DNA of 63,040 nucleotides from Candidatus Heimdallarchaeota archaeon (GCA_019058275.1 JAHLVW010000057.1:1-63040), one strand, 5' to 3'; positions 1 through 36,473 are shown, numbered from the stretch's first letter. Notes: generated by a model from the letters alone, not told the origin. Translations and numbers: made by a program.

Positions 1-851
1 GGCCATTCGATACCATCACGGACGTGAATACTTATGTGAGTATCATTAATCATTTCATAAGAATCTGCTAAGTGTGGCCAGACGCTTAAGTCAGCATCGT
101 ACCAAATCAAAGGATCCATTGTAGCAGAACTAATAGCGCTTGAGGAAGTGTCATCTTGGAACAATGGATTGAGATCAGACCAGGCAGCATTAGTTGTAAC
201 GAGTTCATCAGCGCTTAACTGACCAGTGTGGGTATCAGTCCATGACATTTTACCCCATGATTGGATAACTCCATCAGTATAGTTGTATCCATTTAAGTTT
301 GCCCAGTGAGCAAAATATGCTCTTGGTGAGAATGTTGGCATTAATGGAAGGATTTTGTCCATCATATATTGTTGCCAATCCCAGTAATGTTGGACACGTT
401 TTTCAGAATCTGGAGGCATAATCAAATTGCCTTCTTTCATGTACCACTCATTGATACCTGTTCCCAGTTCATCATCCCAATCCATGCTAGTATTATACCC
501 GAACAAGTTGAGTGAGGCATTTTCATCGTAGACACCAGTAAAGTCTGGGTCTGCACCACCACCAACAAGACTGACGTAACAAATGTCGAAGTCTCTGTAT
601 GTCAGCAAGTCATTCACAAAGGTTGGAAAATCTTGTACAATTACATCAATATTGATTCCAATTCTTGCTACGTGTTGTTTCAAGAAGTTTAGATAGTCAG
701 GTCTAACTCCTCCGCCATTTGTCTTAGCTACCAATGTAAAAACAGGTTCTACTGCATCTGTATTCATTGGTTGAACAGCAATTGAACTTGCAACAAATAG
801 CGCCATTATTGTCCCAACAAGGACAATTGTTTTTGCTTTACTAAATTTCAT
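1..851 (-). CDS. ABC transporter substrate-binding protein, family 5 (oligopeptide/dipeptide type), runs off window edge
   Basis: Not in ORF track. Manual translation from ATG at 851 (GGTGA upstream): MKFSKAKTIVLVG...LKQHVARIGINIDV...DLNPLFQDDTSSSAISSATMDPLIWYDADLSVWPHLADSYE...HVRDGIEW; signal peptide and SBP_bac_5 motifs. Confidence 0.85.
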   Translation of the reverse strand, partial: MKFSKAKTIVLVGTIMALFVASSIAVQPMNTDAVEPVFTLVAKTNGGGVRPDYLNFLKQHVARIGINIDVIVQDFPTFVNDLLTYRDFDICYVSLVGGGADPDFTGVYDENASLNLFGYNTSMDWDDELGTGINEWYMKEGNLIMPPDSEKRVQHYWDWQQYMMDKILPLMPTFSPRAYFAHWANLNGYNYTDGVIQSWGKMSWTDTHTGQLSADELVTTNAAWSDLNPLFQDDTSSSAISSATMDPLIWYDADLSVWPHLADSYEMINDTHISIHVRDGIEW

Positions 852-20221: not shown

Positions 20222-20249
20222 AGGCCCGTAGCGCAGTCTGGACAGCGCG
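20222..20249 (+). tRNA. Isolated 5' fragment of a tRNA-Arg-like gene (acceptor 5' strand + D arm only)
   Basis: AGGCCCG-TA-GCGC-AGTCTGGACA-GCGC-G; A20 typical of Arg; AGGCCCG pairs with CGGGCCT at 33865-33871. Confidence 0.8.
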
Positions 20250-20288
20250 ATAATAATGACTATACTTTATTGCAAACTTCTAACTGAT

Positions 20289-21980
20289 TTAAATATTGAC
20301 AATTTTCTTACTAAGATATTGTTCCTTTAATTTTGCACAATACTTGTGCGTTGCTATCAAATCCTTAGTAATCCTGTTATTTTCGATTTCTATAATTCGA
20401 CTATTAGGAATTATTGATACTAAATCATGAGTAACTGCAAGAACAGATGCATTAGTGCTCATTACATATTCAGCAAGAAGATTTATTATTTTACGTTTGT
20501 TCAGTTCATCTAAGTTAGCAGTAGGTTCATCAATTAACATAATCTTGGGAGATAAGAGTAATCCCAAAAGAATTGATGCTCTTTTCTTTTCTCCTTGGGA
20601 GTAATTCTCTACAAGCTGATTCTTAATGTCATCCAATGAGAGATATTGTAATAAATAATTCAAACTATAGAAATTCTGATGTTCTTCTTTTTTATTAGTT
20701 GAAAAATAATTGATATTTTCAATAAGATTCATGGAAGGATACAAGTTTATATATTGTGAGGAGTAATACACTGATTGAGATCTCAATTTTTCAATTAATG
20801 AGAGATTAGATGGTCGGATTTCTTCACCAAGAATATTAATATATCCTGTAAAGTCCAAATCAATGCCTGATATAAGATTCAAAAGTGTTGTTTTCCCAGT
20901 ACCAGATGGACCAATTAGAAATACTAATTCACCAGGATATAATTGAAAATCTATATTTTGTAAAATTAATTCTTTACTTGGGGAATAATAGAATTTTGTT
21001 AAGTCTTTGCACTCTAAAATACTTATCTCACTTTTATTTCGTTTTCTTGGTTGATATTTTGGGATTTCTATTTGGGAAATTTCTTTTACTTCAAAACTTT
21101 CTGGTGATTCAGGATTTTCAAGATAGATTTTTTTCGTTGTGTGATCAACAATAAATTTCACTTTTTTCTTCAGTGATAAAAGGTCTTTGATTTGGTTTGG
21201 GAGGAATAAGTAAGAAAAACTATCAATATGAGAAACAAACATTTCAGATGTAAGGGGTTTATCCTTTTCACTTACCTCTGGCAAATCTTCTTGAGCATAA
21301 ATGGCTCCTAGTCTACCATTAAAAATTAGAAACGATTCAGAGACCACAGAAAAGTAAATGGGATCATGGCTAACAACAATAACGGTAGTTTTTTCCTCTT
21401 GATTTATTTTTTTAAGAAGATCCAAGATAATTTTAGAGTTCTTTTTATCAAGTTGACCAGTAGGTTCATCAGCCAATAATATTGGTGGAGAGTTTACGAG
21501 GGAAATTGCTAAACTAACTCGCATACTTTCTCCCATTGAAAGCTGCTTTGCTCTTCTGAGAGAGAGATGTTTGATTTCCATTTTTTCAAGTATTTCATCA
21601 ACTTGTTTTTTTGATTCTTCCAAGCTCCTACCAATAAGTCTTGTTGGTACCATTAGATTCCGTTCAACAGTTAAATCAGGAAATAGATTATAATGCGGTA
21701 TTTGATTAAGGAATCCAATTTTTTGTAAACGAAAATTGTATAATTCTTTCTTAGACATTAAATCAATGTCTTGAGAAAGAACATTCACTTTACCACTGGT
21801 TGGTTGTTCTAAACCACTAATCATTCTCATGAGTGTAGATTTCCCAGCACCACTAGGTCCAATAATTGAAACAAAACTACCACTCTTAACATCTAAATCA
21901 CAACCACTTAAGGCAACAATGGAACGACCTAATTCAGGATTTGGATAAATTTTAGTTACTGCCTCTAGATTAATCATCAT
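20289..21980 (-). CDS. ABC transporter ATP-binding protein with two LolD/MacB-type NBDs and an AbrB-like linker
   Basis: GPSGAGKS/LSMGE/LADEPTGQLD and GPSGTGKT/YSQGE/LIDEPTANLD. Confidence 0.9.
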   Translation of the reverse strand: MMINLEAVTKIYPNPELGRSIVALSGCDLDVKSGSFVSIIGPSGAGKSTLMRMISGLEQPTSGKVNVLSQDIDLMSKKELYNFRLQKIGFLNQIPHYNLFPDLTVERNLMVPTRLIGRSLEESKKQVDEILEKMEIKHLSLRRAKQLSMGESMRVSLAISLVNSPPILLADEPTGQLDKKNSKIILDLLKKINQEEKTTVIVVSHDPIYFSVVSESFLIFNGRLGAIYAQEDLPEVSEKDKPLTSEMFVSHIDSFSYLFLPNQIKDLLSLKKKVKFIVDHTTKKIYLENPESPESFEVKEISQIEIPKYQPRKRNKSEISILECKDLTKFYYSPSKELILQNIDFQLYPGELVFLIGPSGTGKTTLLNLISGIDLDFTGYINILGEEIRPSNLSLIEKLRSQSVYYSSQYINLYPSMNLIENINYFSTNKKEEHQNFYSLNYLLQYLSLDDIKNQLVENYSQGEKKRASILLGLLLSPKIMLIDEPTANLDELNKRKIINLLAEYVMSTNASVLAVTHDLVSIIPNSRIIEIENNRITKDLIATHKYCAKLKEQYLSKKIVNI

Positions 21981-23278
21981 GTACCCTCCATAATTGATGG
22001 TTGAAACTCAAAGAATTTCTTCTGATAAAAATGTCTAATGAGAATGTCAACACCTATTAGAGCCACTAATATGACTGACAAATAGAGTGAAAACTGGGAG
22101 TAATAAGGAACTTTCAGAATCCAATTCTCTGCTTTAATTAGAACTCTAAGAAGATAAACAAGAGAACCAATTCCAGCTCTACAACTAATTGGAAGAATTA
22201 GAAGTAAAACAAATAAATACTCAAAAAGGAAATTACTTGAAATAGTCTTAACTGAAAATCCTCGATAACGTAAAACCAGTATCCTTTCTCGTCGAGTATT
22301 AAGCATATCTTGTACTAGAACAATACCTACAATGAAAAATGAAATACCTACAAAAACACCTGTTGTAATAGATAGTGCTATGATACTTGTAGCAAAAGTT
22401 GGCAAGTAATCTGGATAAACATCGATCCAAGTTGTATGTATAATTGAATAAGGTGTTGATTGTAATGCTTGTAAAAATGTTTGCATTTCTGATTGTTTGT
22501 TGAGTTTAATGATAATAGCTTCCTCTAATGATACAATTGAAATATCTTCATTATGTTGAAGAATTACTTGAAAAGCTGATTCAGTCATGACCAGAAAAGG
22601 AATAGAGTTTTTTTCGAAATGATATGTTGAAAGTTGATAGTCATTCAATAATAGTGGGAAAAGATGAAACTTATCAAAAACTTTGAATTCTTGTTCAATG
22701 AATTGCTCATCATCAGCTGAAATGTTGTTAAAGCCCAATACAATGCTATTGCTTTCTGAACCATAGACAATTCTACTATTAAGAAACACATCCTCTGATT
22801 GAGTAAGAATAGAATTTGGAGTATCGCTGAATTCCTCTAAACCATCTTTTACAATTCCCAAATCATAATCCTTGGAATAAGAGATTGTAGATCCAAAGGT
22901 TTGCGAGATAACTAATACCTGATAATCAATGTCAAAAATTGATAACTGAACAAGAGAATAATTTGCAGCAGATTGGACAGAAGGAATCCCTGACATATCT
23001 GAAAGTAAAGATGAAGTGTTAGAAGGATTTTCTAATTGGATAGCAACATCTAAACCCAGATCAAATTTAGCTGAGTTAGTAGCATGTTGTGATAAATAAG
23101 CTGGAACTAGAAATGATTGAATAAAGAGAAGAAATGAAAGGGTTATGAAAAAGGATTGCTTCTTATGATGTTGAAAAGCAAGAGAAAGATTATGTAGGAT
23201 AATCGAGAATTTTTTAGTACCTTTTTTCCAGAGAGAATGAGATAACTTAACTATTTGTTTCAATAACGAATTAATCAA
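21977..23278 (-). CDS. FtsX/MacB-like ABC permease, probably N-terminally truncated
   Basis: RRERILVLRYRGFS...FLFEY motif, TM-ectodomain-3TM layout. Confidence 0.75.
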   Translation of the reverse strand: MINSLLKQIVKLSHSLWKKGTKKFSIILHNLSLAFQHHKKQSFFITLSFLLFIQSFLVPAYLSQHATNSAKFDLGLDVAIQLENPSNTSSLLSDMSGIPSVQSAANYSLVQLSIFDIDYQVLVISQTFGSTISYSKDYDLGIVKDGLEEFSDTPNSILTQSEDVFLNSRIVYGSESNSIVLGFNNISADDEQFIEQEFKVFDKFHLFPLLLNDYQLSTYHFEKNSIPFLVMTESAFQVILQHNEDISIVSLEEAIIIKLNKQSEMQTFLQALQSTPYSIIHTTWIDVYPDYLPTFATSIIALSITTGVFVGISFFIVGIVLVQDMLNTRRERILVLRYRGFSVKTISSNFLFEYLFVLLLILPISCRAGIGSLVYLLRVLIKAENWILKVPYYSQFSLYLSVILVALIGVDILIRHFYQKKFFEFQPSIMEGT

Positions 23279-24261
23279 AATAAAGAGTAAACATCAACTG
23301 ACTTTCTCCACCGGTTCTTACTTTTGGTTACATTTTTACCATCGATATACACTATTCGATTAAGGAATATATCACGTTCTTTTGCTAATTGAACTAATGA
23401 ATCGTAATACTCACTTTTAACAATACTAGTAAATTCAGAATCAATATGTATTTGTCTAATGGTCTTAGGATTAACTGTTATTGCTTGTTTTATATACTCA
23501 ATAACATCATCATGATTGAGATGAGCTTTTATTTTAGCAATTTCATATAGTGTTCGTAAATTCGTTGGTTGTAAATCATTTAATTTAACCCAATAACGTA
23601 ATGCACAAGGAAAATCTTTTTCCTTTTGAGTATTTTCAGCAAGTGAAACTAATACATCACAATCTTCAGAATCAATTCCAAATAATTTTTCTAACAGTTC
23701 TAAACCTTTCTGATAAAAACCCATTTCGAAATATTTCATGCCAATATGCTTTAGAGCTGGAGGGAAATCTGGTTTTATTGCCAATATTTGAGAATAAAAT
23801 TCATCTGCCTTACTAAATTCACCAAATTTCCAAAAATAATCACCTAATCTAACTAAAGTAATATCATCCTTTGGATTAATTTTCAATATTTTATACCAAA
23901 GATCTAGTGCATTAAGTGGTTGATTTGATTCCATGAAAGTAAGAGCAATATTATATAATGCTCGAGTATCATTTGGATTTAATTCCAAAACTCTATGCCA
24001 AGATCTTAAAGCTTGTTCTTTTCTATCTAAACGACTGTATGCTACTCCTAAATTTAACCAGTATTCAGATTCTTTAGAATTCAATTTTATAGCTCGAAGA
24101 AAATGATTTTTTCCTACAGTTATTCTGCCATCAGTCGAATACCATAATCCAAGTTGATTGTGTGAATCATCATCATCAGGATATGTTTTAACAGTTCGCT
24201 GGAAGTCATAAATTCTTTTTCGAATAAGTTCTTTTCTAGGATCATAAAACATGTTAAACAC
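23275..24261 (-). CDS. Tetratricopeptide-repeat protein (possibly C-terminally truncated)
   Basis: Repeated W.NLG.AY...A....LELNP.D TPR consensus. Confidence 0.88.
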   Translation of the reverse strand: MFNMFYDPRKELIRKRIYDFQRTVKTYPDDDDSHNQLGLWYSTDGRITVGKNHFLRAIKLNSKESEYWLNLGVAYSRLDRKEQALRSWHRVLELNPNDTRALYNIALTFMESNQPLNALDLWYKILKINPKDDITLVRLGDYFWKFGEFSKADEFYSQILAIKPDFPPALKHIGMKYFEMGFYQKGLELLEKLFGIDSEDCDVLVSLAENTQKEKDFPCALRYWVKLNDLQPTNLRTLYEIAKIKAHLNHDDVIEYIKQAITVNPKTIRQIHIDSEFTSIVKSEYYDSLVQLAKERDIFLNRIVYIDGKNVTKSKNRWRKSVDVYSLF

Positions 24262-24382
24262 TCAAAGATACTCTCAAATCTTTTCTTAATAAATTACTAA
24301 TTTAGCTTTTTCATGGAAAAATAACTTTTCTTTACTTGAGTAAGTATTTCAGCAGGTACTTGATTTTCTTTAAAATTTGTCT

Positions 24383-24994
24383 TTACATTTCCTTATACCC
24401 AATGATTCTTACTTTGTTTTGACCAATTAATCGTTTTAATTCGGTTTCAATATCATACGAATCCGCTATTGTTTCATTAATTAATTCTTCTCGCAATTTT
24501 TCTTCTTCTTTTTCTGTTAATTTAAGGTATTTTCTCTCTCTTATCCATTCTTCCTCTATCTCTCTTATTTCTTCCTCTATTTGTTCATTTTCTTGTATCA
24601 AATTGATGATATCTTTTGTTTTCTCTCTTTCCTTATAATTCGCATCATTATAATATTGCCACAATCTATCAACTAAGATATGTTCTTTATTAATCATGTA
24701 TTTTCTTTTCTGATGTTTCAGTACGCCTTCCTTCACTACTCTTTGCAATTTTTCTATTAATCTACTTCTCTTAAGAGGTATTTTTTTCTGTAATTCTACT
24801 AGTGAATATTTCTTTGTATATCCTTTCTCTATTTTTTCTGTTAGAAGCAATTTTATAATTTGGTATGCGAATTCTCCTTCATGTACAGTAATTCTTAGTA
24901 GATTTTTGGTTATCCTTCCTTGATCTTTTATTGAGATTTTTGTTAATCTTTCCAAATCATTAGCTATTGTTTCCTTTCCTATTTCTTCACTCAT
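24383..24994 (-). CDS. Winged-helix / coiled-coil hypothetical protein in the Cas1 operon
   Basis: YSLVELQKKIPLKRSRLIEKLQRVVKEGVL wHTH pattern; E-rich coil. Confidence 0.6.
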   Translation of the reverse strand: MSEEIGKETIANDLERLTKISIKDQGRITKNLLRITVHEGEFAYQIIKLLLTEKIEKGYTKKYSLVELQKKIPLKRSRLIEKLQRVVKEGVLKHQKRKYMINKEHILVDRLWQYYNDANYKEREKTKDIINLIQENEQIEEEIREIEEEWIRERKYLKLTEKEEEKLREELINETIADSYDIETELKRLIGQNKVRIIGYKEM

Positions 24995-25000
24995 TTACCT

Positions 25001-26860
25001 TCATCCTTCCTTTAATGCTAACGGTTTAAATCCTATTTCGTTATGGTAATTTCTTAATTCTTTAACAAACTGGTCTTTTTCTTTTCTATCTAATAATCCC
25101 CATACTCCTTCTCTTATAATTGCCCAAGGTTGAAATGTCACCCCATGATGTTTTATTTCATAGTTGTTACTTTTTATTATGAGATCATTCAACCAATACT
25201 TTCCTTCTAAATAATAGTCATTTATTTTGCTCCTTCCTGTTTTACCATTCATTTTACTGTTTAATGCTTCTTTCACGATTTGTTCTAATTGTTCATTAAG
25301 TTCAGATTGTGGATATACAAAAAACACTTTTTGCCTTCTTCTACCATATTTATATTGTACTTGATTAGGAATTATTTCTTCATTCACTAATGCTTCTATT
25401 AGGAAAGGCAAAACTACAAGTTTAATTGGTTCAGACATATCTAAGTGAAGTCCAAACACCCCTCCCTTTGTTTTTCCATGACATATTCCTGGTAATCCAT
25501 CCCAACAAAAATTAATTTTTGTGCAATATTCTTTCACATAATCTCTCGCTTTGTCATAAACACCATTTATTAGTGTATCAATCGCTGAATAAGAAAAGTG
25601 TAACCCGTATGGTTTGAAATTATCCTGCATTAATCGAGCTGACCCTCTGCCTGGAAAGTATATTCCTATTTTCTCGAAAAAGGCTGCTAATGTCCACCAC
25701 ATATTCTTTGCAGCATCTCTGTCTAGATCGTTCCACTCACTTGGAGTTATTGATGTTTTTCTATTTAATTCTTGTATTTTTGTTTCAATCAGTGTTAAAG
25801 TAGATTTCAATTTCTCTTTATCGAGATGATGAGATATTCTTTGAAGGATTGTTCTTCTGCTTACTAATGTTGCTAAACAAAATTCTTTATTAGCAATCTT
25901 TGTTTCCCGTAGTATATTTAGTATTCCAACTTGCTGTTTTATTGGTGGTGGGCTTTTAATTTTCTCTCCGCCAAAAATCACATGAATTTTTTTATACCCT
26001 TTTGATGGCAAAACATCTAAAAGATAATCATAATCCGATTTTTTTCTAGCAACGATATATTCTAGAGTTGTGAGTTTTCCTACCCAGTTACAAACAACTA
26101 ATGTTTTTGTATTGAAATTGAGTATACAAGATTTAAGATCAGGTATAACAATACCGTGTTTTGTACCAACATATGGGACAATAGTGGAGAAGATGCCTGA
26201 TGCTTTGTAGAAATGTTCCCTATAGACATCCCCTTTTTCTTCTGCATAAATCACTCGAAAGAGATTTTCTTTTTCCTTAAACACAAGTTTGATAATTGAC
26301 TCACAATTTATGCAACGTATAACAGAGCTTCCAAGTTTCGCGATAAATCCATTGCCTATGGGAAGTTCTTCGCCACAAAATTTACAGTGATAACTTGTTT
26401 TGTATCCTGTTTTTGTTCTTGTTACTTTTCTTGTTTCATCCAAAAAATCTTGAAATTTCTTTCTTTCCCAATTTGTTTTTCGATCTATGAACCATTGACA
26501 AGCTATCGTATCATGATCCAGCTTCTTCATTACTCGTCGTGGTTCTTCGATGTATCCTGCATCTGCAAGTTCTTCATAAAAAATACAAGTATCGATAGTA
26601 CTTTTGTTATGACAATTCTTACATTTTTTTCCAATAAATTCAGGCCAAGTATTTTTAGATAATTTATAAAATGCTATTCTTCCCTTAAACCAAACAACTT
26701 CTTTTTTATCAACTCGCTTCTCTTTTTCAAGAATTTTAATGTTTTTAGCAACAAATGCATTCGAACATCCTAATTGGTTCTCAATATTCTTGACAGTTAT
26801 GGGGTATACCCCTGTGTGGTTACTAATTAGTGTTAAGATTTTTTCTTGGATTTCATTCAA
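25001..26860 (-). CDS. cas1: Highly diverged stand-alone Cas1 homolog (casposase/Asgard Cas1-like) with N-terminal wHTH and Zn fingers
   Basis: C-terminal Cas1 motif series LDRDAAKNMW...FPGR...IDTLINGVY...GLPGICH...LHLDMSEPIK; N-terminal HTH, CKNC, CKFC, CINC. Confidence 0.75.
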   Translation of the reverse strand: MNEIQEKILTLISNHTGVYPITVKNIENQLGCSNAFVAKNIKILEKEKRVDKKEVVWFKGRIAFYKLSKNTWPEFIGKKCKNCHNKSTIDTCIFYEELADAGYIEEPRRVMKKLDHDTIACQWFIDRKTNWERKKFQDFLDETRKVTRTKTGYKTSYHCKFCGEELPIGNGFIAKLGSSVIRCINCESIIKLVFKEKENLFRVIYAEEKGDVYREHFYKASGIFSTIVPYVGTKHGIVIPDLKSCILNFNTKTLVVCNWVGKLTTLEYIVARKKSDYDYLLDVLPSKGYKKIHVIFGGEKIKSPPPIKQQVGILNILRETKIANKEFCLATLVSRRTILQRISHHLDKEKLKSTLTLIETKIQELNRKTSITPSEWNDLDRDAAKNMWWTLAAFFEKIGIYFPGRGSARLMQDNFKPYGLHFSYSAIDTLINGVYDKARDYVKEYCTKINFCWDGLPGICHGKTKGGVFGLHLDMSEPIKLVVLPFLIEALVNEEIIPNQVQYKYGRRRQKVFFVYPQSELNEQLEQIVKEALNSKMNGKTGRSKINDYYLEGKYWLNDLIIKSNNYEIKHHGVTFQPWAIIREGVWGLLDRKEKDQFVKELRNYHNEIGFKPLALKEG

Positions 26861-26880
26861 GACAAAATCCCCTTACATTA

Positions 26881-27618
26881 TTATTTGTGAATTAATTTCA
26901 AATTTCTCTTTGAATGATTTATAATTAAATCCAGCTCTTCTTTAGATGGAACATATGGATTAATTATCTCATCCGAATTCACCTCTCCAACTGATTCATC
27001 GTCGTTTTCAAATTCACAGTATTTCTCATACATCTTATCCCTAAATGATACGATTTCAGTTTTTATGATGTCTTCAATTGGAGAATTCACATTGGCATAC
27101 GTTCTTTCTGTTAGTATCTTACTAACCAAATCATTCAAATCAGCATCTGTAATATTTTCTAATATAATTTCAATTCTTTTTTCTTCCATCTTTTTCTTTT
27201 GTATTTTTTCTCGAAGATTTTGTTTCTCGTGTTTTAATTGTTGGCTTAATTGTAGAAGATCTTTTTTTCTTTCATTTATTGTTTGTGAGCTATAAAAATC
27301 ATCACATAAAATAGCTAGTCTTGGATATAATTCATCATCAGATAAAGTATGTTTTACCCATACTTTCTTCTGAACTTTTTTTGTTTCGATCAAACTTTTT
27401 TCTTGTAATGATTTTAGTGCTTTAACTACTGATTTCTCATGTCTTCCTATATTATGAGCTAATTTCTTTAATCCACCAGTGAACCATTCATCCATTCCTT
27501 TGATAATTCTCCATAGAAAATAATAGATTATGTTTTGTTCAACTTTGGTTAACAATAAAATTTGGTAAGACATTTTGCTTATTCCTAGTTGTTTTGTACT
27601 AATCATATTCTTTGACAA
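26881..27618 (-). CDS. Winged-helix DNA-binding protein with coiled coil
   Basis: LKKLAHNIGRHEKSVVKALKSLQEKSLIE. Confidence 0.7.
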   Translation of the reverse strand: MSKNMISTKQLGISKMSYQILLLTKVEQNIIYYFLWRIIKGMDEWFTGGLKKLAHNIGRHEKSVVKALKSLQEKSLIETKKVQKKVWVKHTLSDDELYPRLAILCDDFYSSQTINERKKDLLQLSQQLKHEKQNLREKIQKKKMEEKRIEIILENITDADLNDLVSKILTERTYANVNSPIEDIIKTEIVSFRDKMYEKYCEFENDDESVGEVNSDEIINPYVPSKEELDLIINHSKRNLKLIHK

Positions 27619-28441
27619 AATCTTTTATAAAAAGCTAAAAACGGTTTTTTTGACGCTTAAATATAAAATAACCGTTAACCATTTGAGAATATTGTTGGAA
27701 GAAGGTTTCACTATAAGTAAAACAGAATTTATTGCATACTTGCATTGTTCATTTAAATTTTACATATTAAAGGAACTTAATAACGATGCGAAATCGGGAG
27801 CTACTTGGATAACTGATCTTACTGATCATAGACCAGATATACAAGAAGGTTTGAAATGGCATCAATGGTTTAATGATTTTTATAATAAATATGGAGAAGA
27901 TATACGTAATGGTGTTTATCCAATTATTAACGGAAAAGATGAAATTTTAAAAAAGAAATTCATCGATTTAGAGATAAAACGTTATAATAATTCTCCGCAG
28001 TTTTGGGAGCCTATTGGAACAGAGTTTATGCTTAATGATAATTATCTCAAAGGAAAAATTGATCGTATTGATAAAGTAAATGAACAAGGTCATTGTCGAA
28101 TTATTGAATATAAAAAGAATCCAGGGTTTTTTGATAAAGAAGAATTATTATTTTATACATTATTATTATCTAATACTCTTCCACACCCGGGGTTACCTGG
28201 AATCATACAAGTAACTCAGATAGGGACCTATTATTATAATATCGGAGAATTCAATATTGATAGTATTAGTCTTAATGAAAGACAAAAGTTTGAGCAATTT
28301 TTGCATAATATTCGGAAAGAAATGCTACAACCTAATCTAGCTAAAAATCAAAATTGTAATTTTAAACGTACAAATTGCTTATATCATGAAATTTGTCGTA
28401 GAATAAGGATAGAAAAAACAGATATTTTATCGGACTTCTAA
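27575..28441 (+). CDS. Cas4/AddB-like PD-(D/E)XK nuclease with 4-Cys Fe-S motif (true start probably TTG at 27683-27695)
   Basis: ISKTEFIAYLHC...GLKWH...LKGKIDRIDK...IIEYKK...C-terminal C-x6-C-x5-C. Confidence 0.8.
   Translation: MLIPSCFVLIIFFDKIFYKKLKTVFLTLKYKITVNHLRILLEEGFTISKTEFIAYLHCSFKFYILKELNNDAKSGATWITDLTDHRPDIQEGLKWHQWFNDFYNKYGEDIRNGVYPIINGKDEILKKKFIDLEIKRYNNSPQFWEPIGTEFMLNDNYLKGKIDRIDKVNEQGHCRIIEYKKNPGFFDKEELLFYTLLLSNTLPHPGLPGIIQVTQIGTYYYNIGEFNIDSISLNERQKFEQFLHNIRKEMLQPNLAKNQNCNFKRTNCLYHEICRRIRIEKTDILSDF
27622..27676. promoter_or_regulatory. Divergent promoter of the Cas1/Cas4 module with inverted repeat AACGGTT...AACCGTT
   Basis: TATA-like TTTTATAA and TTAAATATA; inverted half-sites at 27640-27646 and 27670-27676. 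Confidence 0.45.
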
Positions 28442-28681: not shown

Positions 28682-30358
28682 TCACTTGAGTAGCTCATTT
28701 TTCCATTTTTTCCGTAAAAGTGTAAATTGCTCAGCATTGATGATTTGTTCTTCTGGTTGATACATAATAAATGTTCTAAGATATTTTGCCAAAAGGTGAT
28801 TAACGAATCTAACTCCTTTTACAAGTGTAGCAAAATTATCATAGAATAATTGAGAAACTTCTTGACCATTATCACAAATATTGACATATTTTTCACGTGG
28901 TTCGAGATAAGGTAGAAGCTCAAGCAATTTGGAAGTAGGTTGTAATGGCAATTTAAGAGGTTTAGAAGTTGAAATTTGAAATGTTATATGTTTATAATGC
29001 TCTGCTAAAATTTGCATAACGGAAGAATTTTGTTCAAGATTAGTATTAACAATTTTTTGAAAAAGCGTTATTGGAGTTGCATGCTTATTTTTCTCATAAT
29101 TGGAATAACTGCTTTGAGAAAGCTGTAATAATTTTCGCATTTCAGTATAACTTCGATTATTACGAATAGATATGAGATAATCATCTAATCCTAAAACCGT
29201 TATACCTATGAGTTTTGTAAAGTCAAAATAACCATCAGAGGTGAGAGTTTGGTTATTAATTCCTTTGAATTTGGTAGAATATCTTCTGCGTTGAATTAAC
29301 TGATAAAAATCTTGCATTTTCTTGGGATTTAAAACACCAATCAAATTTGCATAAGCACTTGTATATTTAATCGGTAAAGAAATTAAATAAGGGCCAGAAT
29401 TTAACTGGGTTTTTTTTGTTTTAATATTATATTCCTGCAAATAGTGTTGAAAATCCTCAATATATTTTTCACTCGCACTACAAAAATTAATTCCTTTCTT
29501 AAAAGAGCCATCTGCATCCATAGCACCACGCCAGTATAGACTCCGGAAAGGTTCGCCGAAGTGCTTGAAAAGTAAGGGTTCTCGAAGGGAATCATATTTA
29601 GCACCTTGAATAGTGTGGTCTGTTAAAAAATTGAATAAACAGACAGCAGAAGAGGATCTGAGTTCGATATTCCATGCATTACCTGTTTTGAAAACTCGAC
29701 CAGCATCAGAAAACACTGAATCAAATAGTTTTGATAATAGCATAATATGTTCTTTCGTTTCATCAACAACTCGCAACCAATGTCTATGAAGATGACCATC
29801 ACCATTAATGACACCACAAAGATAAGCTAATTTTGGGGAAAGTACAATCGGGATAGAATAACGTTTTCCTCGAGCACTTTCAAAATACAAATACTCCGGA
29901 AAAGTAGCAGGAATTCCAATGTGAGCCCAAGCACAACGAACTAAAGGAAATGGCATAGCACCACGATTAATATAATATCGAATTGCAATGCGCCACTCAA
30001 GAATGCTCTTATTAACTGACTTGTAAAAATAGTTTCGAGCAACCTCAGAGATAAGAAGATCTTTCTCCTTAATTCGGTGTTTTTCTTCGTCTGTTAAAAC
30101 AAGGAAAGGGAACCGAGAAAGAATGCGATCGCTTGTTTTTTTCCTTACAAAATCAATACGATGAACAAGAATAGGAAACAGGTTTAAGGTTAAGGAATCC
30201 TGATCAAGGAAGATTTTATCAATCTGGTTTTTTTCAACTAACTTATTAGCAGTAATCCAATGAGGAAAATTAGTGCAATCTTTATCGTAAAGCAAGGGAT
30301 CTGTAGACCAATGAAGAGGATCCAGCATAGTAATACTCCTACAAGTAATAGTTCTCAA
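28682..30358 (-). CDS. Free-standing double-motif LAGLIDADG endonuclease fused to XRE-type HTH
   Basis: LAYLCGVINGDGH and LYWRGAMDADGS; RSYTEMRKLLQLSQSSYSNYEKNKHATP HTH; no intein ends; start probably near 30328. Confidence 0.8.
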   Translation of the reverse strand: MRTITCRSITMLDPLHWSTDPLLYDKDCTNFPHWITANKLVEKNQIDKIFLDQDSLTLNLFPILVHRIDFVRKKTSDRILSRFPFLVLTDEEKHRIKEKDLLISEVARNYFYKSVNKSILEWRIAIRYYINRGAMPFPLVRCAWAHIGIPATFPEYLYFESARGKRYSIPIVLSPKLAYLCGVINGDGHLHRHWLRVVDETKEHIMLLSKLFDSVFSDAGRVFKTGNAWNIELRSSSAVCLFNFLTDHTIQGAKYDSLREPLLFKHFGEPFRSLYWRGAMDADGSFKKGINFCSASEKYIEDFQHYLQEYNIKTKKTQLNSGPYLISLPIKYTSAYANLIGVLNPKKMQDFYQLIQRRRYSTKFKGINNQTLTSDGYFDFTKLIGITVLGLDDYLISIRNNRSYTEMRKLLQLSQSSYSNYEKNKHATPITLFQKIVNTNLEQNSSVMQILAEHYKHITFQISTSKPLKLPLQPTSKLLELLPYLEPREKYVNICDNGQEVSQLFYDNFATLVKGVRFVNHLLAKYLRTFIMYQPEEQIINAEQFTLLRKKWKNELLK

Positions 30359-30500: not shown

Positions 30501-32675
30501 ATGGAAATTAAAAAAATAAATCCTTCAAGGAAAATACTTTATCAAGCTAAGAAACCAAAAAGAGGAACGTTTTATCAAATTTATACAAATGGTACTTTAG
30601 AGTTTATGGGAGGAATAACTACTAAAAATCAAATTCATATTTCAAATGATATAAGAAAATGGAAAAGATTACCTAGTGAAAAGAATAAAGATTCACTTAT
30701 TGTAAAGGTGACTTACTATTTTATTAACTGTTTAGAAGAAGAAGAACAGATTTCATGTCAATCAGAAATTATTCATAATGGTTATGGAATATATTTACAA
30801 CCGTTGAATACAGATTTGAATTATACAAAGATATTAGCAAAATTAAAAGAAAGAAAAATAACTTCTTGTAGTATTCCAGGAATGATAAATGGTAAAGAAC
30901 AGCTAGAATCAACAGAATATTTTATCAAAAGCTCTAATTTAAGAGAAAAATGTGAAATTCCAGCAATTGAGAACCTTATTCCATTAGTAAATGGGGGGTA
31001 TCAAGAGTCAGAATTTTCTATATATAAAAGTAAAACCGAACAAATTTATATCAAACAAATAGGGAGGATAGATCATTGGGGACAATTTCGCTTATCAGCT
31101 GACTTGTTCAGATATTTCCAAGATTGGGAGGAAATACCCAATTTCGTTTGTTCAAAAGAGCAAGCTGAAGAATATTTTATACCATCAAGTGTGCATAAAC
31201 GAAAAACTGGCAAGAGAACCAAGAACCTTAATTTTCCGATTTATGAAGAACCACAAAGAATAGAAGTTCTTTTTACTAATCCATCATTAACTCTAACTAA
31301 TGAAGCAAAAAAAACAATTAATTTTAAAAAACAATTAATTAAAAATAATTTTCCGATAATTTCTTTAAAAATAAATGCAAGAACAAAAGAGACACATATT
31401 GACAAGAATTTTGAGAGAAAATGTATAGAAATTTTCCAAAAATTGAACAAAAAAATACCTAAAGCAACATTAGCAACAGAAGTTGACCTATTTATTGATT
31501 CTAATTATAATACTACAGGTAATAAGAAATGTTTTGATATAGTCTTTTATGTACCGCTATTTAATAGTGAAATGACATTAATACTCTCCGAAATCCGTAC
31601 TAGTCAAAAACATTCTAAGTATCTAAATACTAGCGGAATAGCAGAACTTTTTCATGTAAAAAATATTATACAAAGCCATTATTTTATACCAAACATTTTC
31701 TTAAATAGAGAATTATTCAACCCGCATAATATCGATGTTACAAGGTTATTTAGTCATACAATAGGTATACCCATTATTAATAAAAAATCTATAATGCAAT
31801 ATTATATTGAACCACTAAGATTATTGACGTATTTATCAAATTTTAAAGGAAAAGAAAAACAAACTACATCATCCAACAAAATGATTCATCCATTTACTCA
31901 TTCTTTAGTAGATAATAATGACTATTATGCTCAAGCATTTGATATTTTACAACTAAAAGATCAAAAACAGACATGTAACTCATTCAAACATTATTTGTTA
32001 TTTATGGGGATAAGAGAAAAAGAGTTTTCATTAATTGGAAGAGAATATATCACTAAACAGGAAATTACTTCAATCATCCGGTACTTAAAACAACAAAGAA
32101 AAACTAGGCTGTCAACAGAAGAAAAAGGAGCTTTATTATTAATACATAATTTATTAATAAAGCAAAATTCTTTTGCTTATCTAAGCTCATTAGAAAAAAA
32201 AGAGAGAAATAATGATATAGACCTGCTTCTAAAAAATAAAAAATTAATTGAAAAATCATTACCAATAAATGTAAAGTTATTAGGTTTTCATAAATCAAAT
32301 AGCAAAGGGGGAAATTTTGAAAGAGAAATTAGGAGAAATTATGAAGATTTCGGATATGAAGTAATATCAAACTTGCTTATTTCATGTGGGGGACAGCTAT
32401 TCGAAATAGATAATCTGGTTATTAGTAAAACTGGTTTAAGAATAATAAGCTGTAAAGATCATTCCCAATATACACCTTATGATATTTTAGTAAATCATAT
32501 TCGGAATTATGCAAACATCTTAGAATTAAATAATTTTCTACTAGGAAACCAAAAGGCAATTTTATACATCAAAGTAAGAAAAGAGTATGCTAACCAATTG
32601 AAAGAAAAATACGAAATAGAAGATTGGACAAAAAATGTCCAGATAAAAATTTTAAAAGCCAAATTAAGTGTCTGA
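30501..32675 (+). CDS. Large protein with two PD-(D/E)XK restriction-like domains and AbrB-like N-terminal motifs
   Basis: FERKC...FDIVF...SEIRTS and GGNFEREI...GYEV...EIDNL...ISCKD; GRIDHWGQFRLS. Confidence 0.6.
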   Translation: MEIKKINPSRKILYQAKKPKRGTFYQIYTNGTLEFMGGITTKNQIHISNDIRKWKRLPSEKNKDSLIVKVTYYFINCLEEEEQISCQSEIIHNGYGIYLQPLNTDLNYTKILAKLKERKITSCSIPGMINGKEQLESTEYFIKSSNLREKCEIPAIENLIPLVNGGYQESEFSIYKSKTEQIYIKQIGRIDHWGQFRLSADLFRYFQDWEEIPNFVCSKEQAEEYFIPSSVHKRKTGKRTKNLNFPIYEEPQRIEVLFTNPSLTLTNEAKKTINFKKQLIKNNFPIISLKINARTKETHIDKNFERKCIEIFQKLNKKIPKATLATEVDLFIDSNYNTTGNKKCFDIVFYVPLFNSEMTLILSEIRTSQKHSKYLNTSGIAELFHVKNIIQSHYFIPNIFLNRELFNPHNIDVTRLFSHTIGIPIINKKSIMQYYIEPLRLLTYLSNFKGKEKQTTSSNKMIHPFTHSLVDNNDYYAQAFDILQLKDQKQTCNSFKHYLLFMGIREKEFSLIGREYITKQEITSIIRYLKQQRKTRLSTEEKGALLLIHNLLIKQNSFAYLSSLEKKERNNDIDLLLKNKKLIEKSLPINVKLLGFHKSNSKGGNFEREIRRNYEDFGYEVISNLLISCGGQLFEIDNLVISKTGLRIISCKDHSQYTPYDILVNHIRNYANILELNNFLLGNQKAILYIKVRKEYANQLKEKYEIEDWTKNVQIKILKAKLSV

Positions 32676-32683
32676 AAAGTAAA

Positions 32684-32822
32684 TGGCGAGTCTGGAGGGA
32701 TTTGTTCCAACAGAAGTCGCAATTTCTGTAGATTGAACCCTCGGCCTGCTACAACTCCCGAATTTGCCTTAGCAAAATTCGTTTAGAAGGCAGCCGCGCT
32801 GTCCTAGCTGCGCCACAGACTC
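32684..32822 (-). tRNA. tRNA-Arg(UCU) with a 30-nt anticodon-loop intron (~32753-32783) and a 31-nt T-loop intron at 58/59 (32702-32732); CCA encoded
   Basis: GAGTCTG/CAGACTC acceptor stem, GCGC D-stem, GCTGC/GTAGC anticodon stem, CT-TCT-A loop, GAGGG-TTCAA[intron]AT-CCCTC; removing both introns gives a 78-nt cloverleaf. Confidence 0.92.
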
Positions 32823-33107: not shown

Positions 33108-33830
33108 GTGAGAAAGATGAAAAGCGAAAGAACAAAATTACAAGAGAATGAGAACTATCGAGGAGTTTTTTCTGGAACTTTTAAAAGATTCGGAGAGAAA
33201 AGAGGATACAATGGATATCCTGAAACAACGGTTTTGCTGGTGAATATACAAGATAGAGACGGGACTATTGTAGGTGACCACCTTTGGTTTAATTACACTA
33301 AAGGATTCAAAGAATTAGGTGAACTAAAAGTTGGTGACATAATTCAATTTGATGCAAGAGTGAAGAAGTACTACAAAGGTTATCAAGGATATCGTGAAGA
33401 TGTTCCTAGAAGTCAGAAACGGGATTACAAACTAAGTCATCCAACAAAGATGTCTATTATTGGAATTAATTATGACTTTCTTGAAGAATTAAAGAAAAAG
33501 CAAGAACTTGAAGAACAACGTGAAAAATATGAAGCACTTAATAAAAAGATCTATAGATATTTGATAAGTAAGTTCTTGGTTAAAAATAAAAGTAATGTGT
33601 CTTGTCATTTAGTTTACATACTTAGTAAGAAAGAAATCTGTTATACCGTTGTGGATTACAATGGAGAATTAGAATCCTTGTCAAGTGATGAACTTGATGA
33701 GTTACTTCTTAGAATTAAAAATAAGATAAGAAGTGTGATTGTTGGTTTTGATATAATAAGTTTCAAAACAGATTGGTTTTTTGATAAAAAAAGGAGAAAG
33801 AAGTTGCTATTTAGGTTATCTTTACACTAG
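33108..33830 (+). CDS. Conserved hypothetical protein of phage/mobile-element type (possible OB fold)
   Basis: F.GTFKRFG.K...TVLL.NI...DHLWF..TKGF...GD.IQFDARVKKY.KGY...DYKLSHPTK pattern. Confidence 0.6.
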   Translation: MRKMKSERTKLQENENYRGVFSGTFKRFGEKRGYNGYPETTVLLVNIQDRDGTIVGDHLWFNYTKGFKELGELKVGDIIQFDARVKKYYKGYQGYREDVPRSQKRDYKLSHPTKMSIIGINYDFLEELKKKQELEEQREKYEALNKKIYRYLISKFLVKNKSNVSCHLVYILSKKEICYTVVDYNGELESLSSDELDELLLRIKNKIRSVIVGFDIISFKTDWFFDKKRRKKLLFRLSLH

Positions 33831-33842
33831 AACCTTCCTAGA

Positions 33843-33875
33843 AGGTCGTGGGTTCAAATCCCACCGGGCCTGCCA
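33843..33875 (+). repeat. tRNA 3' fragment R1 (variable loop, T arm, acceptor 3' strand, G, CCA)
   Basis: AGGTC-GTGGG-TTCAAAT-CCCAC-CGGGCCT-G-CCA. Confidence 0.88.
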
Positions 33876-33923
33876 TTTGTTTTTGTTCTTAATGATTAAT
33901 AGATTTTGGTGGTGAAATCATGG

Positions 33924-34019
33924 TGTTAATTTTATTTGACATATGTTAAAAATATTTAACAAACAAAATTTTTATAAGTAATGTTAAAATAATTTTACAC
34001 ATGTTAAAAATATTTAACG
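33924..34019. promoter_or_regulatory. Four palindromic operators TGTTAA-N6-TTAACA flanking the TATA box of the MNT-HEPN operon
   Basis: Copies at 33924, 33944, 33982 and 34002; TTTATAAG between the two pairs. Confidence 0.75.
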
Positions 34020-34513
34020 ATTTGAGTCCTTTTTTTGAGGATAATTATAGACGGATAAATATTAGAGAATACGCAAGAATATTAAAAATAAGTCCTCCTT
34101 CTGCTTCAAAGACGTTAAAAGCATTTGCAAAAGAGGGCTTACTAGTTTTAGAAGAAGATAAGAATTACTTGAATTTCTCCACAAATAAAGTCAGTAATCT
34201 ATTTCTTCATCTCTCAAGATTATACTGGTTTCAAACATTTGATGAAATTGGTTTTCTCGATTATCTTGAAAAGGAATTAATTGCCCCTACAATTATCTTA
34301 TTTGGTTCCTTTGCTAAAGCTGAAGTGAGAAAACAATCAGACATCGATATAGCAATTTTTTCTGATTTGCAAAACGAGCTCAATTTTGATGTTTTCGAAC
34401 AAAAACTTCAAAGAAAGATACAGCAGTTTAGATTTGAAAGTAGAGACAAAGTTCCAACTCAAGAGCTCTTAAACAATATACTAAGTGGATTTATTTTAAT
34501 GGGAGGATGGTAA
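34001..34513 (+). CDS. HTH + minimal nucleotidyltransferase (MNT) antitoxin
   Basis: IREYARILKISPPSASKTL; ILFGSFAKAE...SDIDIAI. Confidence 0.88.
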   Translation: MLKIFNDLSPFFEDNYRRINIREYARILKISPPSASKTLKAFAKEGLLVLEEDKNYLNFSTNKVSNLFLHLSRLYWFQTFDEIGFLDYLEKELIAPTIILFGSFAKAEVRKQSDIDIAIFSDLQNELNFDVFEQKLQRKIQQFRFESRDKVPTQELLNNILSGFILMGGW

Positions 34514-34514
34514 A

Positions 34515-34922
34515 TTGGATTGGAAAGCCTGTCAGAGATCTAGTTTAGTTAAAACTATTAAAGTTGATTCTAATCTTATAAAGTCTCTTGTAAAAGAATC
34601 TGCTAAGAAATTAAGAACTCAGAATCAAATTTTGCTAAGTGATGAATCTGCTTCCTCCAAAATAACTTTAGCTTATGATGCTGTTAGAATGGTTTTAGAC
34701 GCAGTAGCAATAAAATGTGGTTATAAAATATATAACCACGAATGTTTTAGAGCATTCTTAAAGGAGGTTTTAAAAGAATCTTCTTTGGGAGATGAATTTG
34801 ATAAATACCGAAAAATAAGAAATGCTATTAATTATTATGGAAAAGAAGTCTTAGCTGTTGGTTCTGAAAAAATAATCTCCGAATTGATTGATTTTCATCG
34901 TAAAATAAGAAGATTTTTGTAA
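34515..34922 (+). CDS. HEPN-domain toxin (partner of MNT)
   Basis: AYDAVR...GYK..NH...RKIRNAINYYG; directly downstream of MNT. Confidence 0.8.
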   Translation: MDWKACQRSSLVKTIKVDSNLIKSLVKESAKKLRTQNQILLSDESASSKITLAYDAVRMVLDAVAIKCGYKIYNHECFRAFLKEVLKESSLGDEFDKYRKIRNAINYYGKEVLAVGSEKIISELIDFHRKIRRFL

Positions 34923-34937
34923 AGGAAATCTTTTTTT

Positions 34938-34956
34938 GGTCCTGGGTTCAAATCCC
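34938..34956 (+). repeat. tRNA T-arm fragment R2
   Basis: GGTCCTGGGTTCAAATCCC. Confidence 0.75.
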
Positions 34957-35393
34957 TTTAAATTTGCTATTTTTTCCAAGCTCTCTTTTTTCTTTTGCTA
35001 TTGGATCGATTACGTTTATATTGGGTATTTGTTTGAAAGACTGATCGTGTGTTAACAGCTTCTTTATTTTCTCCTCTTCCATTATTGCTAATATACATGC
35101 ATCTCTTCCCCCTAATCCCAGATGTTTTGTCTGGTAAAGCTTTTTAACCACTTTTTCTAATAATTTTCTTTTACATCTAGTATTTTGAATTCACCTTGTA
35201 TAAACATCATTGCTTTATCTTTTGCTTCATTTCTTTCCAATCTTCTAAACAAGTAATGAATTGTTTCTATTGCCACTATGGTTATAATGACTACTTCTTT
35301 TTTCTTCAGATATTCTTCTAAAATCTCAACTGTTTTTTCGTGTTCAGGCATGTTTTCATCAAAATAATAGGCTCAAATATTTGAATCCACCAT
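34948..35393 (-). pseudogene. vapC: VapC/PIN toxin pseudogene (nonsense codon plus frameshift)
   Basis: MVDSNI*AYYFD (TGA at 35373-35375), VAIET, frameshift near 35165, then RDACILA...LLTHDQSF. Confidence 0.82.
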
Positions 35394-35398
35394 AATTG

Positions 35399-35641
35399 TC
35401 AGACATTTTTCTCCCAGATAGTTTTCAGTTCTAATGGTTTTATTTCTTCTTTTGATCCTTTCTTTGTTATACAACCTTTTAATTTTGAGGAAAACTCTTC
35501 AAATGATATTACTTTTCGGATAATCAGCTCTTTTCCTTTTCTTTCTAGCTGTAATGTCATTCCTGGTTCAAGTCCTAAAGCTTTTCTTTCTTCCTCTGGA
35601 ATAACTATTCTTCCTTTCTCATCCACAGTAATCTTACTCAT
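35399..35641 (-). CDS. AbrB/MazE/SpoVT-family antitoxin
   Basis: TVDEKGRIVIPEEERKALGLEPG. Confidence 0.9.
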   Translation of the reverse strand: MSKITVDEKGRIVIPEEERKALGLEPGMTLQLERKGKELIIRKVISFEEFSSKLKGCITKKGSKEEIKPLELKTIWEKNV

Positions 35642-35800
35642 TATCTTACACCATTCTCTCTTGGACCAATCATGATTCTTTCTTACTATTATTAGTTCTA
35701 TCTTAGATATAGAAACAATGATATTTTATGGTTAATTTATCCCTTTTTACCATTTATTATCACATAAATACTAATAATTAAAACTTATGTGTTTGGTGGA

Positions 35801-35832
35801 AAGTCGAGGTTCAAATCCCCCCAGGCTTGCCA
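35801..35832 (+). repeat. tRNA 3' fragment R3 (degenerate)
   Basis: AAGTCGAGGTTCAAATCCCCCCAGGCTTGCCA. Confidence 0.8.
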
Positions 35833-35835
35833 TTC

Positions 35836-36222
35836 CTATTTCTCTTTTTCGATTACAATTTTACTCTTTTTTCCTTCACTAATTATCCTAATGATTTTTT
35901 CTGTAACTATTGTGAAATTTCCTTCTAGTTTTTTTGATTGTGATTTTAGTAGTTTTTGTATAACTCTTATCTTGTTTTCAGTTCTTTCATCTTCTAGTTT
36001 TAATAGTATTGCTCCCTTATGTGATTTCTTCGAGCGAGTAATTAATTCTCCGAAATCCTTATCATTTGTTATCAAAATATAATTCTTTTCATTTGCTATC
36101 TTAAGTATACTATCGTCATCTGCTCCTCGTACTTCATCATATACTGAATAAACTTTATGTCTTTGTTCCTTCAACCATTTAGCCACCTTTGGTTCAGTAC
36201 ATTCATCTACAAGAAATCGCAT
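35836..36222 (-). CDS. DUF5615 PIN-like toxin
   Basis: MRFLVDEC...GADDDSIL..A....ILITNDKDFGEL. Confidence 0.88.
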   Translation of the reverse strand: MRFLVDECTEPKVAKWLKEQRHKVYSVYDEVRGADDDSILKIANEKNYILITNDKDFGELITRSKKSHKGAILLKLEDERTENKIRVIQKLLKSQSKKLEGNFTIVTEKIIRIISEGKKSKIVIEKEK

Positions 36223-36224
36223 TG

Positions 36225-36473
36225 CTAGACTGCCTCTTCTACGATAGGGACAAAAGTGGTGTTTTCTAATGTTTCAGAAGCATATAAAAGGCAGGCAAGT
36301 ATATCCTCTCTGGTTAATCCATCATATTCTTCTATAATTTCCTCGAAAGTTATGTCATTAGCTAAGAGATTCAATATGAATTGCACTGTTAACCTCGTGC
36401 CTTTTATAACTGGTTTTCCTGTCATTATTTTCGGATCTAATGTTATCCTTTCAAGGAGCTTTTTTTCTGTCAA
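36225..36473 (-). CDS. DUF433 antitoxin
   Basis: RITLDPKIMTGKPVIKGTRLTV...EEIIEEY..LTREDILACLLYA. Confidence 0.92.
   Translation of the reverse strand: MTEKKLLERITLDPKIMTGKPVIKGTRLTVQFILNLLANDITFEEIIEEYDGLTREDILACLLYASETLENTTFVPIVEEAV

Follow-up and report, generated by a model that had tools for sequence, protein, structure and literature searches.

The 63,040-nucleotide (nt) stretch of DNA from Candidatus Heimdallarchaeota archaeon analyzed here (GCA_019058275.1, JAHLVW010000057.1:1-63040; hereafter the window) encodes a protein of 619 amino acids (aa) which, judged from its modelled fold, is a genuine but very diverged relative of Cas1. We give an even chance to the reading that this Cas1-like protein is the integrase of a family of casposon-like, tRNA-integrating elements that lack DNA polymerase B (PolB) and occur in one Heimdallarchaeial genus. 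That the protein mobilises the element is what we infer from its fold and its tRNA context. Coordinates below are those of the window unless a locus (L) or a contig (C) is named; genomes are designated G, and the genome of the window is G000.

Fold, catalytic residues and distribution of the Cas1-like protein

The Cas1-like protein is organized as follows.

25001-26860, minus strand: 619-aa Cas1-like protein with a winged helix-turn-helix (wHTH) domain, two zinc modules and a two-domain Cas1 fold
Domain limits: wHTH, residues ~1-70; Cas1 N-terminal beta domain and catalytic helical domain, residues ~235-619
Zinc modules, four Cys each: C80/83/92/121 and C159/162/183/186
Catalytic residues: D380, H461, D474, E477

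An AlphaFold2 model of residues 196-619 (predicted local distance difference test, pLDDT, 87.6; predicted template modelling score, pTM, 0.75) was compared with known structures using Foldseek. The best 50 rows were Cas1 or casposase chains throughout, with 350-420 aligned columns, and the top match was 7kfu_C (E 1.7e-7). In VIA-align the best structural match was casposase 6opm_A (Z 22.2, root-mean-square deviation 2.8 A, 245 residues), followed by A. fulgidus Cas1 4n06_A (Z 22.0) and RT-Cas1 7kft (Z 21.6). Overall, the Z scores were 20-22 over 222-249 residues (model range 75/105..424).

The relatives of the protein were gathered from two sequence sets, which yielded 34 proteins (5.8-billion set) and 27 representatives (1.8-billion set); the conservation counts are based on an alignment of 36 C-terminal parts with identities down to ~20%. 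In hhalign the family profile matched the two canonical Cas1 proteins of the same genome with a probability of 77% (E 2e-5), and D380 was paired with the first catalytic Glu, H461 with the catalytic His and D474/E477 with the D..E motif. Position 380 was acidic in all 36 relatives (Glu in 26, Asp in 10), H461 and D474 were invariant in all 36, as were R405 and R409, and position 477 was occupied by Glu in 33 and Asp in three. The Asp at position 380 thus appears to be part of a family-level alternation between Glu and Asp. Since the fold is that of Cas1 and the catalytic set is aligned and conserved, the protein is read as a Cas1 relative. The original prediction had quoted five motifs of a Cas1 series, all of which were found in the translation; its proposal of a Cas1 fold, with the catalytic His and the last Glu kept and the first Glu changed to Asp, was borne out by the same comparisons. 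The N-terminal 200 residues gave a weak match to HTH_11 (wHTH) and contain eight Cys that are invariant in the family alignment and that would form two zinc-type modules.

From sequence alone the Cas1 identity is marginal. The Pfam model PF01867 (Cas_Cas1) gave a borderline match to residues 303-414 (22.8 bits, cut-off 22.3) that was partial, covering profile positions 80-187, and it matched just two of 19 relatives, so that the profile evidence is marginal as well. The PADLOC Cas1 models matched at E ~2e-4. No Cas1 match was obtained among the chain sequences of the PDB with phmmer and the family profile. Among the comparisons with PDB and Cas1, only those of fold and of profile against profile found Cas1.

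The distribution of the family was scanned with its profile at E<=1e-30. The close family was detected in six of nine congeners and gave no match in the 291 Asgard genomes scanned from 69 further genera; it reached up to four copies per genome and was patchy within the genus. The family is therefore confined, as far as searched, to one genus of the Heimdall group (Asgard). More distant Cas1-like paralogs, some of them fusions of 1000-1380 aa, are encoded at ~12 loci of the 4.1-Mb genome of the window. On contigs C17, C27, C50, C93 and C106 of this genome, Cas1-like domains were located in open reading frames (ORFs) of this size, and each of these ORFs has a LAGLIDADG paralog at a distance of a few kb. 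The LAGLIDADG family is represented by more than 24 copies in this genome, most of them beside Cas1-like paralogs. Many of these copies lie on short contigs, as repeated DNA would give.

tRNA genes and direct repeats at the element ends

An association of the homologs with tRNA genes had been set beforehand as a test of the original prediction, and it held in seven of the ten distinct close-family loci. In these loci a tRNA gene or remnant abuts the gene of a ~195-aa protein; the tRNA is convergent and lies right after this gene, which ends a few nt from the CCA end.

L001 (= L026): tRNA-Val-GAC, 2 nt after the ~195-aa gene
L003: tRNA-Val-GAC, 5 nt after the ~195-aa gene
L004: tRNA-Ala-GGC, after the ~195-aa gene
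L005: T-arm, acceptor strand and CCA, ~7 nt after the ~195-aa gene
L035: tRNA-Val-GAC, 6 nt after the ~195-aa gene
L002: degenerate tRNA 3' remnant
L017 and the window: tRNA 5' remnant

The tRNA sites used by the family are Val-GAC, Ala-GGC, Arg-UCU and Pro-UGG, and two copies in one genome were found at different tRNAs. The target tRNA is not tracked by the Cas1-like phylogeny. Copies that are 65.7% identical are located at Val and Ala, while two copies that target Val are only 56% identical.

Three elements of 10-14 kb terminated, on the far side, in a direct repeat of the tRNA tail.

L003: tail repeat of 24-25 nt, 11.2-kb unit
L004: tail repeat of 28 nt, 10.2-kb unit
Contig C33 of the window's genome: tail repeat of 28 nt, 14.2 kb, variant module beside tRNA-Pro

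These flanking repeats of 24-32 nt may be target duplications or the cores of attachment (att) sites, which look the same without an empty site. The bounded units of L003 and L004 consist almost entirely of the seven module genes described below.

No PF00589 or PF16795 integrase was detected in the island of the window or in the elements of L003, L004 and C33, and no tyrosine or serine recombinase was detectable inside the repeat-bounded units. The six PF00589 tyrosine recombinases of the genome are located on other contigs than any module or array, and PF16795 had no match in this genome. The Cas1-like protein is put forward as the integrase because it is the sole integrase-type protein detected by Pfam in the repeat-bounded elements and the tyrosine recombinases lie elsewhere; within these elements, the earlier statement that it is the only integrase-like gene thus stands. 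The same holds for the absence of a CRISPR array, Cas2 and PolB nearby. No tandem or CRISPR-like short-period array was found in the window by TRF and a repeat finder. Cas2 (PF09827) had no match in the window and matched in the genome only on contigs C26 and C76, beside the canonical Cas1 genes, and these two contigs carry the canonical Cas1-Cas2 adaptation loci. PolB (PF00136) had no match in the window or in any homolog locus, and its matches in the genome were only on C11, C41 and C94.

Beyond the distal repeat copy, further tail fragments were observed in the window, L003, L001 and C33/C108, with small operons between them that are mostly toxin-antitoxin pairs. On C33 (92827-108125) and C108 (132-6752) of G000, a tRNA-Pro(UGG) is followed by the 14.2-kb variant element and then by at least six tail fragments of 28-32 nt at intervals of 0.7-3 kb; C108 appears to extend the end of C33, the sequence after one fragment being identical. 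In L004 the distal repeat runs into 28 more nt, which are similar to the sequence next to the proximal tRNA end. This extension suggests a stump left by an older member of the element family, that is, repeated or tandem integration followed by decay and not cassette capture. Tail repeats are also present on contigs without a Cas1-like gene (C19, C107 and C53). The genome-wide array detector over-calls, since on C69 it took up tRNA genes around ribosomal protein genes. A multicopy family of ~290-aa proteins (eight matches in G010) was found inside cassettes bounded by tRNA fragments (L004 1232-2116; G000 C108 3868-4704). Proteins with tetratricopeptide repeats (TPR) are recurrent cargo at either end of the elements (window 23275-24261; L004 2369-3241; L025 14117-14989; L018 8229-10946).

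The seven-gene module and its copy in the window

All four ORFs that had been described at 24383-28441 are present. The unit to which they belong is larger and comprises seven genes, encoding a NERD protein (~710 aa), a ~230-aa protein, a LAGLIDADG-HTH protein (~550 aa), the Cas4-like, wHTH and Cas1-like proteins and the ~195-aa protein. The set is conserved in eight homolog loci from different assemblies, and all seven genes are present in the window between 24383 and 33830. The designation of the Cas1 gene as stand-alone is thus right in that Cas2, an array and PolB are absent, but not for the unit, which has seven genes instead of four, nor for the genome with its paralog loci. Besides the Cas1-like gene, the module in the window contains the following genes.

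24383-24994, minus strand: 203-aa protein with a winged-helix-like conserved core and a charged coiled tail, 6 nt after the Cas1-like gene
26881-27618, minus strand: 245-aa wHTH protein, first gene of the operon, separated from the Cas1-like gene by 20 nt
27575-28441, plus strand: Cas4-like PD-(D/E)XK nuclease with four invariant Cys, divergent to the operon
28682-30358, minus strand: 558-aa LAGLIDADG protein with a double motif, a C-terminal XRE-type HTH and a conserved N-terminal extension
30501-32675, plus strand: 724-aa protein, a conserved module member with a C-terminal NERD/restriction-endonuclease-like domain
33108-33830, plus strand: 240-aa protein with no family assigned, after the NERD gene in all loci

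The minus-strand operon is thus ordered 245-aa wHTH, 619-aa Cas1-like and 203-aa protein, with gaps of 20 and 6 nt. Both small ORFs flanking the Cas1-like gene are real, and the wHTH label given to them earlier is backed by weak matches (for the 245-aa protein HVO_A0114, E 6.6e-5, and a DnaD-like phrog, E 3e-6; for the 203-aa protein PADLOC WH, E 1e-3). The gene of the ~195-aa family, to which the 203-aa protein belongs, is always located directly downstream of the Cas1-like gene, and this protein is a candidate partner subunit. Modelled as a complex, the Cas1 part and the ~195-aa protein scored 0.40, against 0.02 for the best control, in a range (up to 0.60) that holds seven of 80 solved complexes and both of the mismatches that pass; the mark itself was reached by 58 of the 80 solved complexes and two of 110 mismatches. 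The runs agreed in at least 66% of contacts, and the pLDDT of the partner was at least 57. The prediction weakly supports a Cas1-like/~195-aa complex.

The Cas4-like protein matched PDDEXK_1 in Pfam (E 7.7e-14) and, weakly, the PADLOC Cas4 models (E 1.9e-4 and 2e-3). Its residues D163 and E178-Y-K180 are invariant among seven homologs, as are C58 near the N-terminus and C261, C268 and C274 near the C-terminus, which at the sequence level is the arrangement of Cas4/AddB. These findings agree with the proposal of an opposite-strand nuclease with Cys of the Fe-S type. The true start of the gene is probably near 27692, because the homologs begin ~40 residues inside the listed ORF. In the LAGLIDADG protein the motifs GDG (186-188) and DADG (281-284) are invariant in nine sequences; both catalytic Asp are kept, and the protein is therefore probably an active endonuclease. 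PADLOC gave no system-level match for the module beyond the weak Cas1 and Cas4 matches.

If the Cas1-like protein is the integrase, its oligomer would be guided by the wHTH and zinc modules and would attack the 3' segment of the tRNA gene, T-arm to CCA, on both strands. The 3'-OH ends of the element would be joined by it to this segment, which gap repair would then duplicate. The Cas4-like nuclease would trim the element ends in the manner of Cas4 during CRISPR adaptation. The ~195-aa protein may take the bridging place of Cas2, and the LAGLIDADG and NERD nucleases may cut targets or competitors.

The copy in the window is associated with the following tRNA genes and fragments.

20222-20249, plus strand: 5' piece of tRNA-Arg(UCU), positions 1-26, its acceptor strand pairing perfectly with that of R1 and its break point shared by a 97%-identical strain
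32687-32822, minus strand: intact tRNA-Arg(UCU) with two introns (anticodon loop and T-loop); Rfam tRNA 37.9 bits, cut-off 29
33844-33875, plus strand: R1, 3' fragment of the resident tRNA-Arg, comprising variable loop, T-arm, acceptor and CCA; the 240-aa gene ends 10 nt away
34935-34977, plus strand: R2, degenerate tRNA 3' fragment, with a MNT/HEPN-type pair between R1 and R2
35798-35840, plus strand: R3, degenerate tRNA 3' fragment, with an AbrB/MazE-type pair between R2 and R3
36607-36649, plus strand: R4, tRNA 3' fragment with two mismatches to R1, and a DUF433/DUF5615 (PIN-like) pair between R3 and R4

The piece at 20222-20249 and R1 are taken as the two ends of one resident tRNA-Arg(UCU), because their acceptor strands pair perfectly. 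The ends are now 13.6 kb apart, the anticodon arm is gone, and everything past position 26 is lost at the proximal piece. The congener G005 has an intact, intron-bearing ortholog, a tRNA-Arg(TCT) at L020 11187-11294, with matching upstream sequence and neither a module nor a tail repeat; it sits between the orthologs of the nitroreductase and ABC/PhoU genes that flank the copy in the window. The broken gene is presumably compensated by the two-intron tRNA-Arg(UCU) of the island. This intact tRNA was found only with a laxer search, since ARAGORN and Rfam at gathering filters detected no tRNA in the window.

A sister strain (L017) showed 96% DNA identity over 4.3 kb of the module, an intact Cas1-like gene and the same break point in the tRNA. 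It lacks the block of ABC, FtsX and TPR genes (window 20253-24298), so that 200 nt separate the end of its module from the tRNA stump, and TnpB takes the place of the NERD gene. The broken tRNA, the presence of the block and the differences between the strains led us to read the copy in the window as old, rearranged and probably immobile, the clean cases being L003, L004 and C33. The LAGLIDADG genes of the two strains (window 28682-30358; L017 3303-4198) have only 74% DNA identity, compared with the 96% of the adjacent 4.3 kb, a difference suggestive of a hot spot of recombination at this gene or of allele replacement. In L017 the module is bracketed by two inverted 26-nt tRNA 5' stumps that are 96% alike (971-996, plus strand; 9426-9451, minus strand), and both end after position 26 (GCGC[G/A]ATAG); the shared break point suggests a site prone to recombination. 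Operons of an ABC ATPase and a giant FtsX-type permease recur near modules or tRNA-like 3' ends (window 20289-23278; L002 13030-17501; G000 C107 34831-43427; G000 C53 2428-8515). These operons may be mobile cargo or a favoured neighbourhood, because their orthologs lie next to the same flank in the congener G009, where the module is absent.

The four co-oriented tRNA 3' fragments described earlier as a repeat array are real. They extend over 33841-36649 and share the core GGTTCAAATCCC, which was observed four times against 0.21 expected. R3 and R4 are preceded by ~100 nt of similar sequence (35660-35843 and 36468-36652), although the antitoxin genes next to them are unrelated. This shared segment was considered as an end of the Cas1 element and ruled out, since the alignment includes R3 and R4 only and not R1 or R2.

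Competing readings and relation to known systems

A number of observations, however, weigh against the Cas1-like protein as integrase. No tRNA was found downstream in three of the ten close loci (L018, L027 and L028), nor within ~3 kb downstream at the six loci of a sister subfamily of ~700 aa. The comparison of congeners gave no clean empty site for the window or L004. For the window, the flank orthologs are on different contigs in most congeners and within ~8 kb of each other only in G005; for L004, the right flank has no ortholog in other congeners and the left-flank gene is a multicopy cassette gene. The ABC/FtsX/TPR block lies between the proximal tRNA-Arg piece and the module, which is not cleanly bounded in the window, and in G009 the ABC/FtsX orthologs stand beside the same flanking genes with no module present. 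When the terminal 300 nt of the elements in L003, L004, L017 and the window were compared, no inverted repeats rose above noise, in a search that short or imperfect repeats in AT-rich DNA could escape. The flanking repeats are about twice as long as the casposon duplication, PolB is missing, and tyrosine integrases, too, classically have att repeats of 25-32 nt that run from T-arm to CCA. R2 and R3 have just the 12-nt core intact while their flanks diverged, which fits att cores of different elements. The first catalytic acid of the window protein is Asp, where most relatives have Glu. The module also holds three other nucleases, and one of them, the LAGLIDADG protein with its intact catalytic Asp, could itself drive site-specific insertion. 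It is because of the att-like core, the tail of L004, the missing PolB and the negative search for inverted repeats that the integrase role is stated conditionally here.

Some of these points would fit a module that is a defence or DNA-processing system carried as cargo on tRNA-anchored islands, with integration performed by a recombinase in trans, by an unrecognised recombinase or by LAGLIDADG homing. We regard this as possible, though distinctly less probable than the integrase reading. Four nuclease-type proteins together with regulators and toxin-antitoxin pairs are typical content of defence islands. The LAGLIDADG copies outnumber the Cas1-like genes, some occur without one, and their catalytic Asp residues are invariant; moreover, an att-like core is kept in R2 and R3, and the contigs C19, C107 and C53 have tail repeats in the absence of a Cas1-like gene. 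A review of the 2020 Asgard survey goes no further than to call some Cas1 homologs 'possibly associated with novel MGE' (mobile genetic elements; PMC8730458). Cargo is difficult to reconcile with the bounded units of L003 and L004, which are nearly all module genes with no other integrase-like gene, and no contig with a module or array carries a tyrosine recombinase. PADLOC recognised no system, and LAGLIDADG homing alone gives no direct target repeats.

A further proposal, which extends the original prediction, is that the Cas1-like enzyme also builds the tRNA-fragment arrays by placing toxin-antitoxin cassettes into the tRNA tail, which would serve as the analogue of a CRISPR repeat. The repeat units of 25-35 nt in the window, L003, C33/C108 and C19, with intervals of 0.3-3 kb that mostly hold one small operon and no integrase, are what such an activity might leave. 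The Cas1-bearing element always adjoins the intact tRNA (window, L003 and C33), the contigs of several arrays are free of tyrosine recombinases, and inserts from 7 nt to ~4 kb were taken by a family 1 casposase (PMC8464041). Nevertheless, we consider array building unlikely. Only the 12-nt core remains in R2 and R3 while the most distal fragment, R4, is the best kept, so that there is no simple gradient of age, and the distal fragments of L001 derive from a different tRNA than the proximal gene. L004 points to tandem integration with subsequent decay, in which toxin-antitoxin genes would survive as resistant to loss; arrays exist on contigs without a Cas1-like gene, and the detector also caught ordinary tRNA gene pairs near ribosomal protein genes. 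Least probable of all, and very doubtful in our view, is that the protein has lost its integrase function and that the island, now immobile and decaying, keeps it as a simple nuclease or as a regulator that binds DNA. The rearranged copy of the window without a proximal repeat, the change of the first Glu to Asp and the prominent N-terminal wHTH are in line with such a loss. However, the His, Asp, Glu and two Arg are conserved across 36 relatives with identities down to ~20%, the gene is intact at 96% DNA identity in the sister strain, and Asp and Glu alternate at position 380 throughout the family.

For the Cas1-like protein as integrase, the closest comparison is with casposons. Casposases integrate at tRNA 3' ends, and those of family 2 target tRNA ends (PMC5137440); a family 1 casposase is reported to have inserted many different oligonucleotides at a specific target, and a 13-bp target duplication is reported for a family 1 casposon (PMC8464041). 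The family 2 casposons of Aciduliprofundum boonei and Methanosarcina mazei, with which the casposase structure 6opm is grouped here, resemble the elements described here in their Cas1-fold integrase with added DNA-binding domains, their size of ~10-14 kb, their location at tRNA 3' ends with direct target repeats and their lack of a CRISPR array and Cas2. In contrast to casposons, the present elements have no PolB, no inverted repeats were seen, and the repeats are 25-32 nt rather than 13 bp. The HTH and zinc modules are N-terminal in the Cas1-like protein, the fixed companions are the Cas4-like, LAGLIDADG-HTH and NERD proteins with two or three small proteins, and similarity in sequence is barely detectable (Pfam 22.8 bits).

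With the CRISPR Cas1-Cas2-Cas4 systems the family shares the Cas1 fold and catalytic residues, an adjacent Cas4-like protein with four Cys and a duplicated segment of CRISPR-repeat length; it differs in having no Cas2, array or effector genes and in inserted units of kilobases instead of ~35 bp. The tRNA islands of tyrosine integrases are similar in their insertion at tRNA 3' ends, T-arm-to-CCA repeats, tandem accretion and toxin-antitoxin remnants, but neither the elements nor their contigs carry a tyrosine or serine recombinase. Extremely diverged Cas1 homologs of Asgard archaea, some tied to a distinct Cas4 and extra nucleases, were reported in 2020 (Makarova et al., CRISPR J 3:156) and, as two reviews summarise (PMC8730458; PMC9939771), have been suggested to be markers of unknown MGEs; the likeness to these homologs is drawn from the descriptions in the reviews.

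There is a small chance that this Cas1 is a gene-cassette integrase, placing kilobase inserts (its own element, toxin-antitoxin or transporter genes) into a tRNA tail with duplications of 25-32 bp. If true, casposon transposition and CRISPR spacer acquisition would have a living intermediate between them. These are the two known settings of Cas1, and the accepted scenario derives spacer acquisition from transposition. A third setting without polymerase or Cas2, with a Cas4-like partner, tRNA-tail targets and duplications of repeat length, would widen the known roles of Cas1, and such elements would give a concrete test system for the origin of the repeat-length duplication and of the partnership with Cas4.

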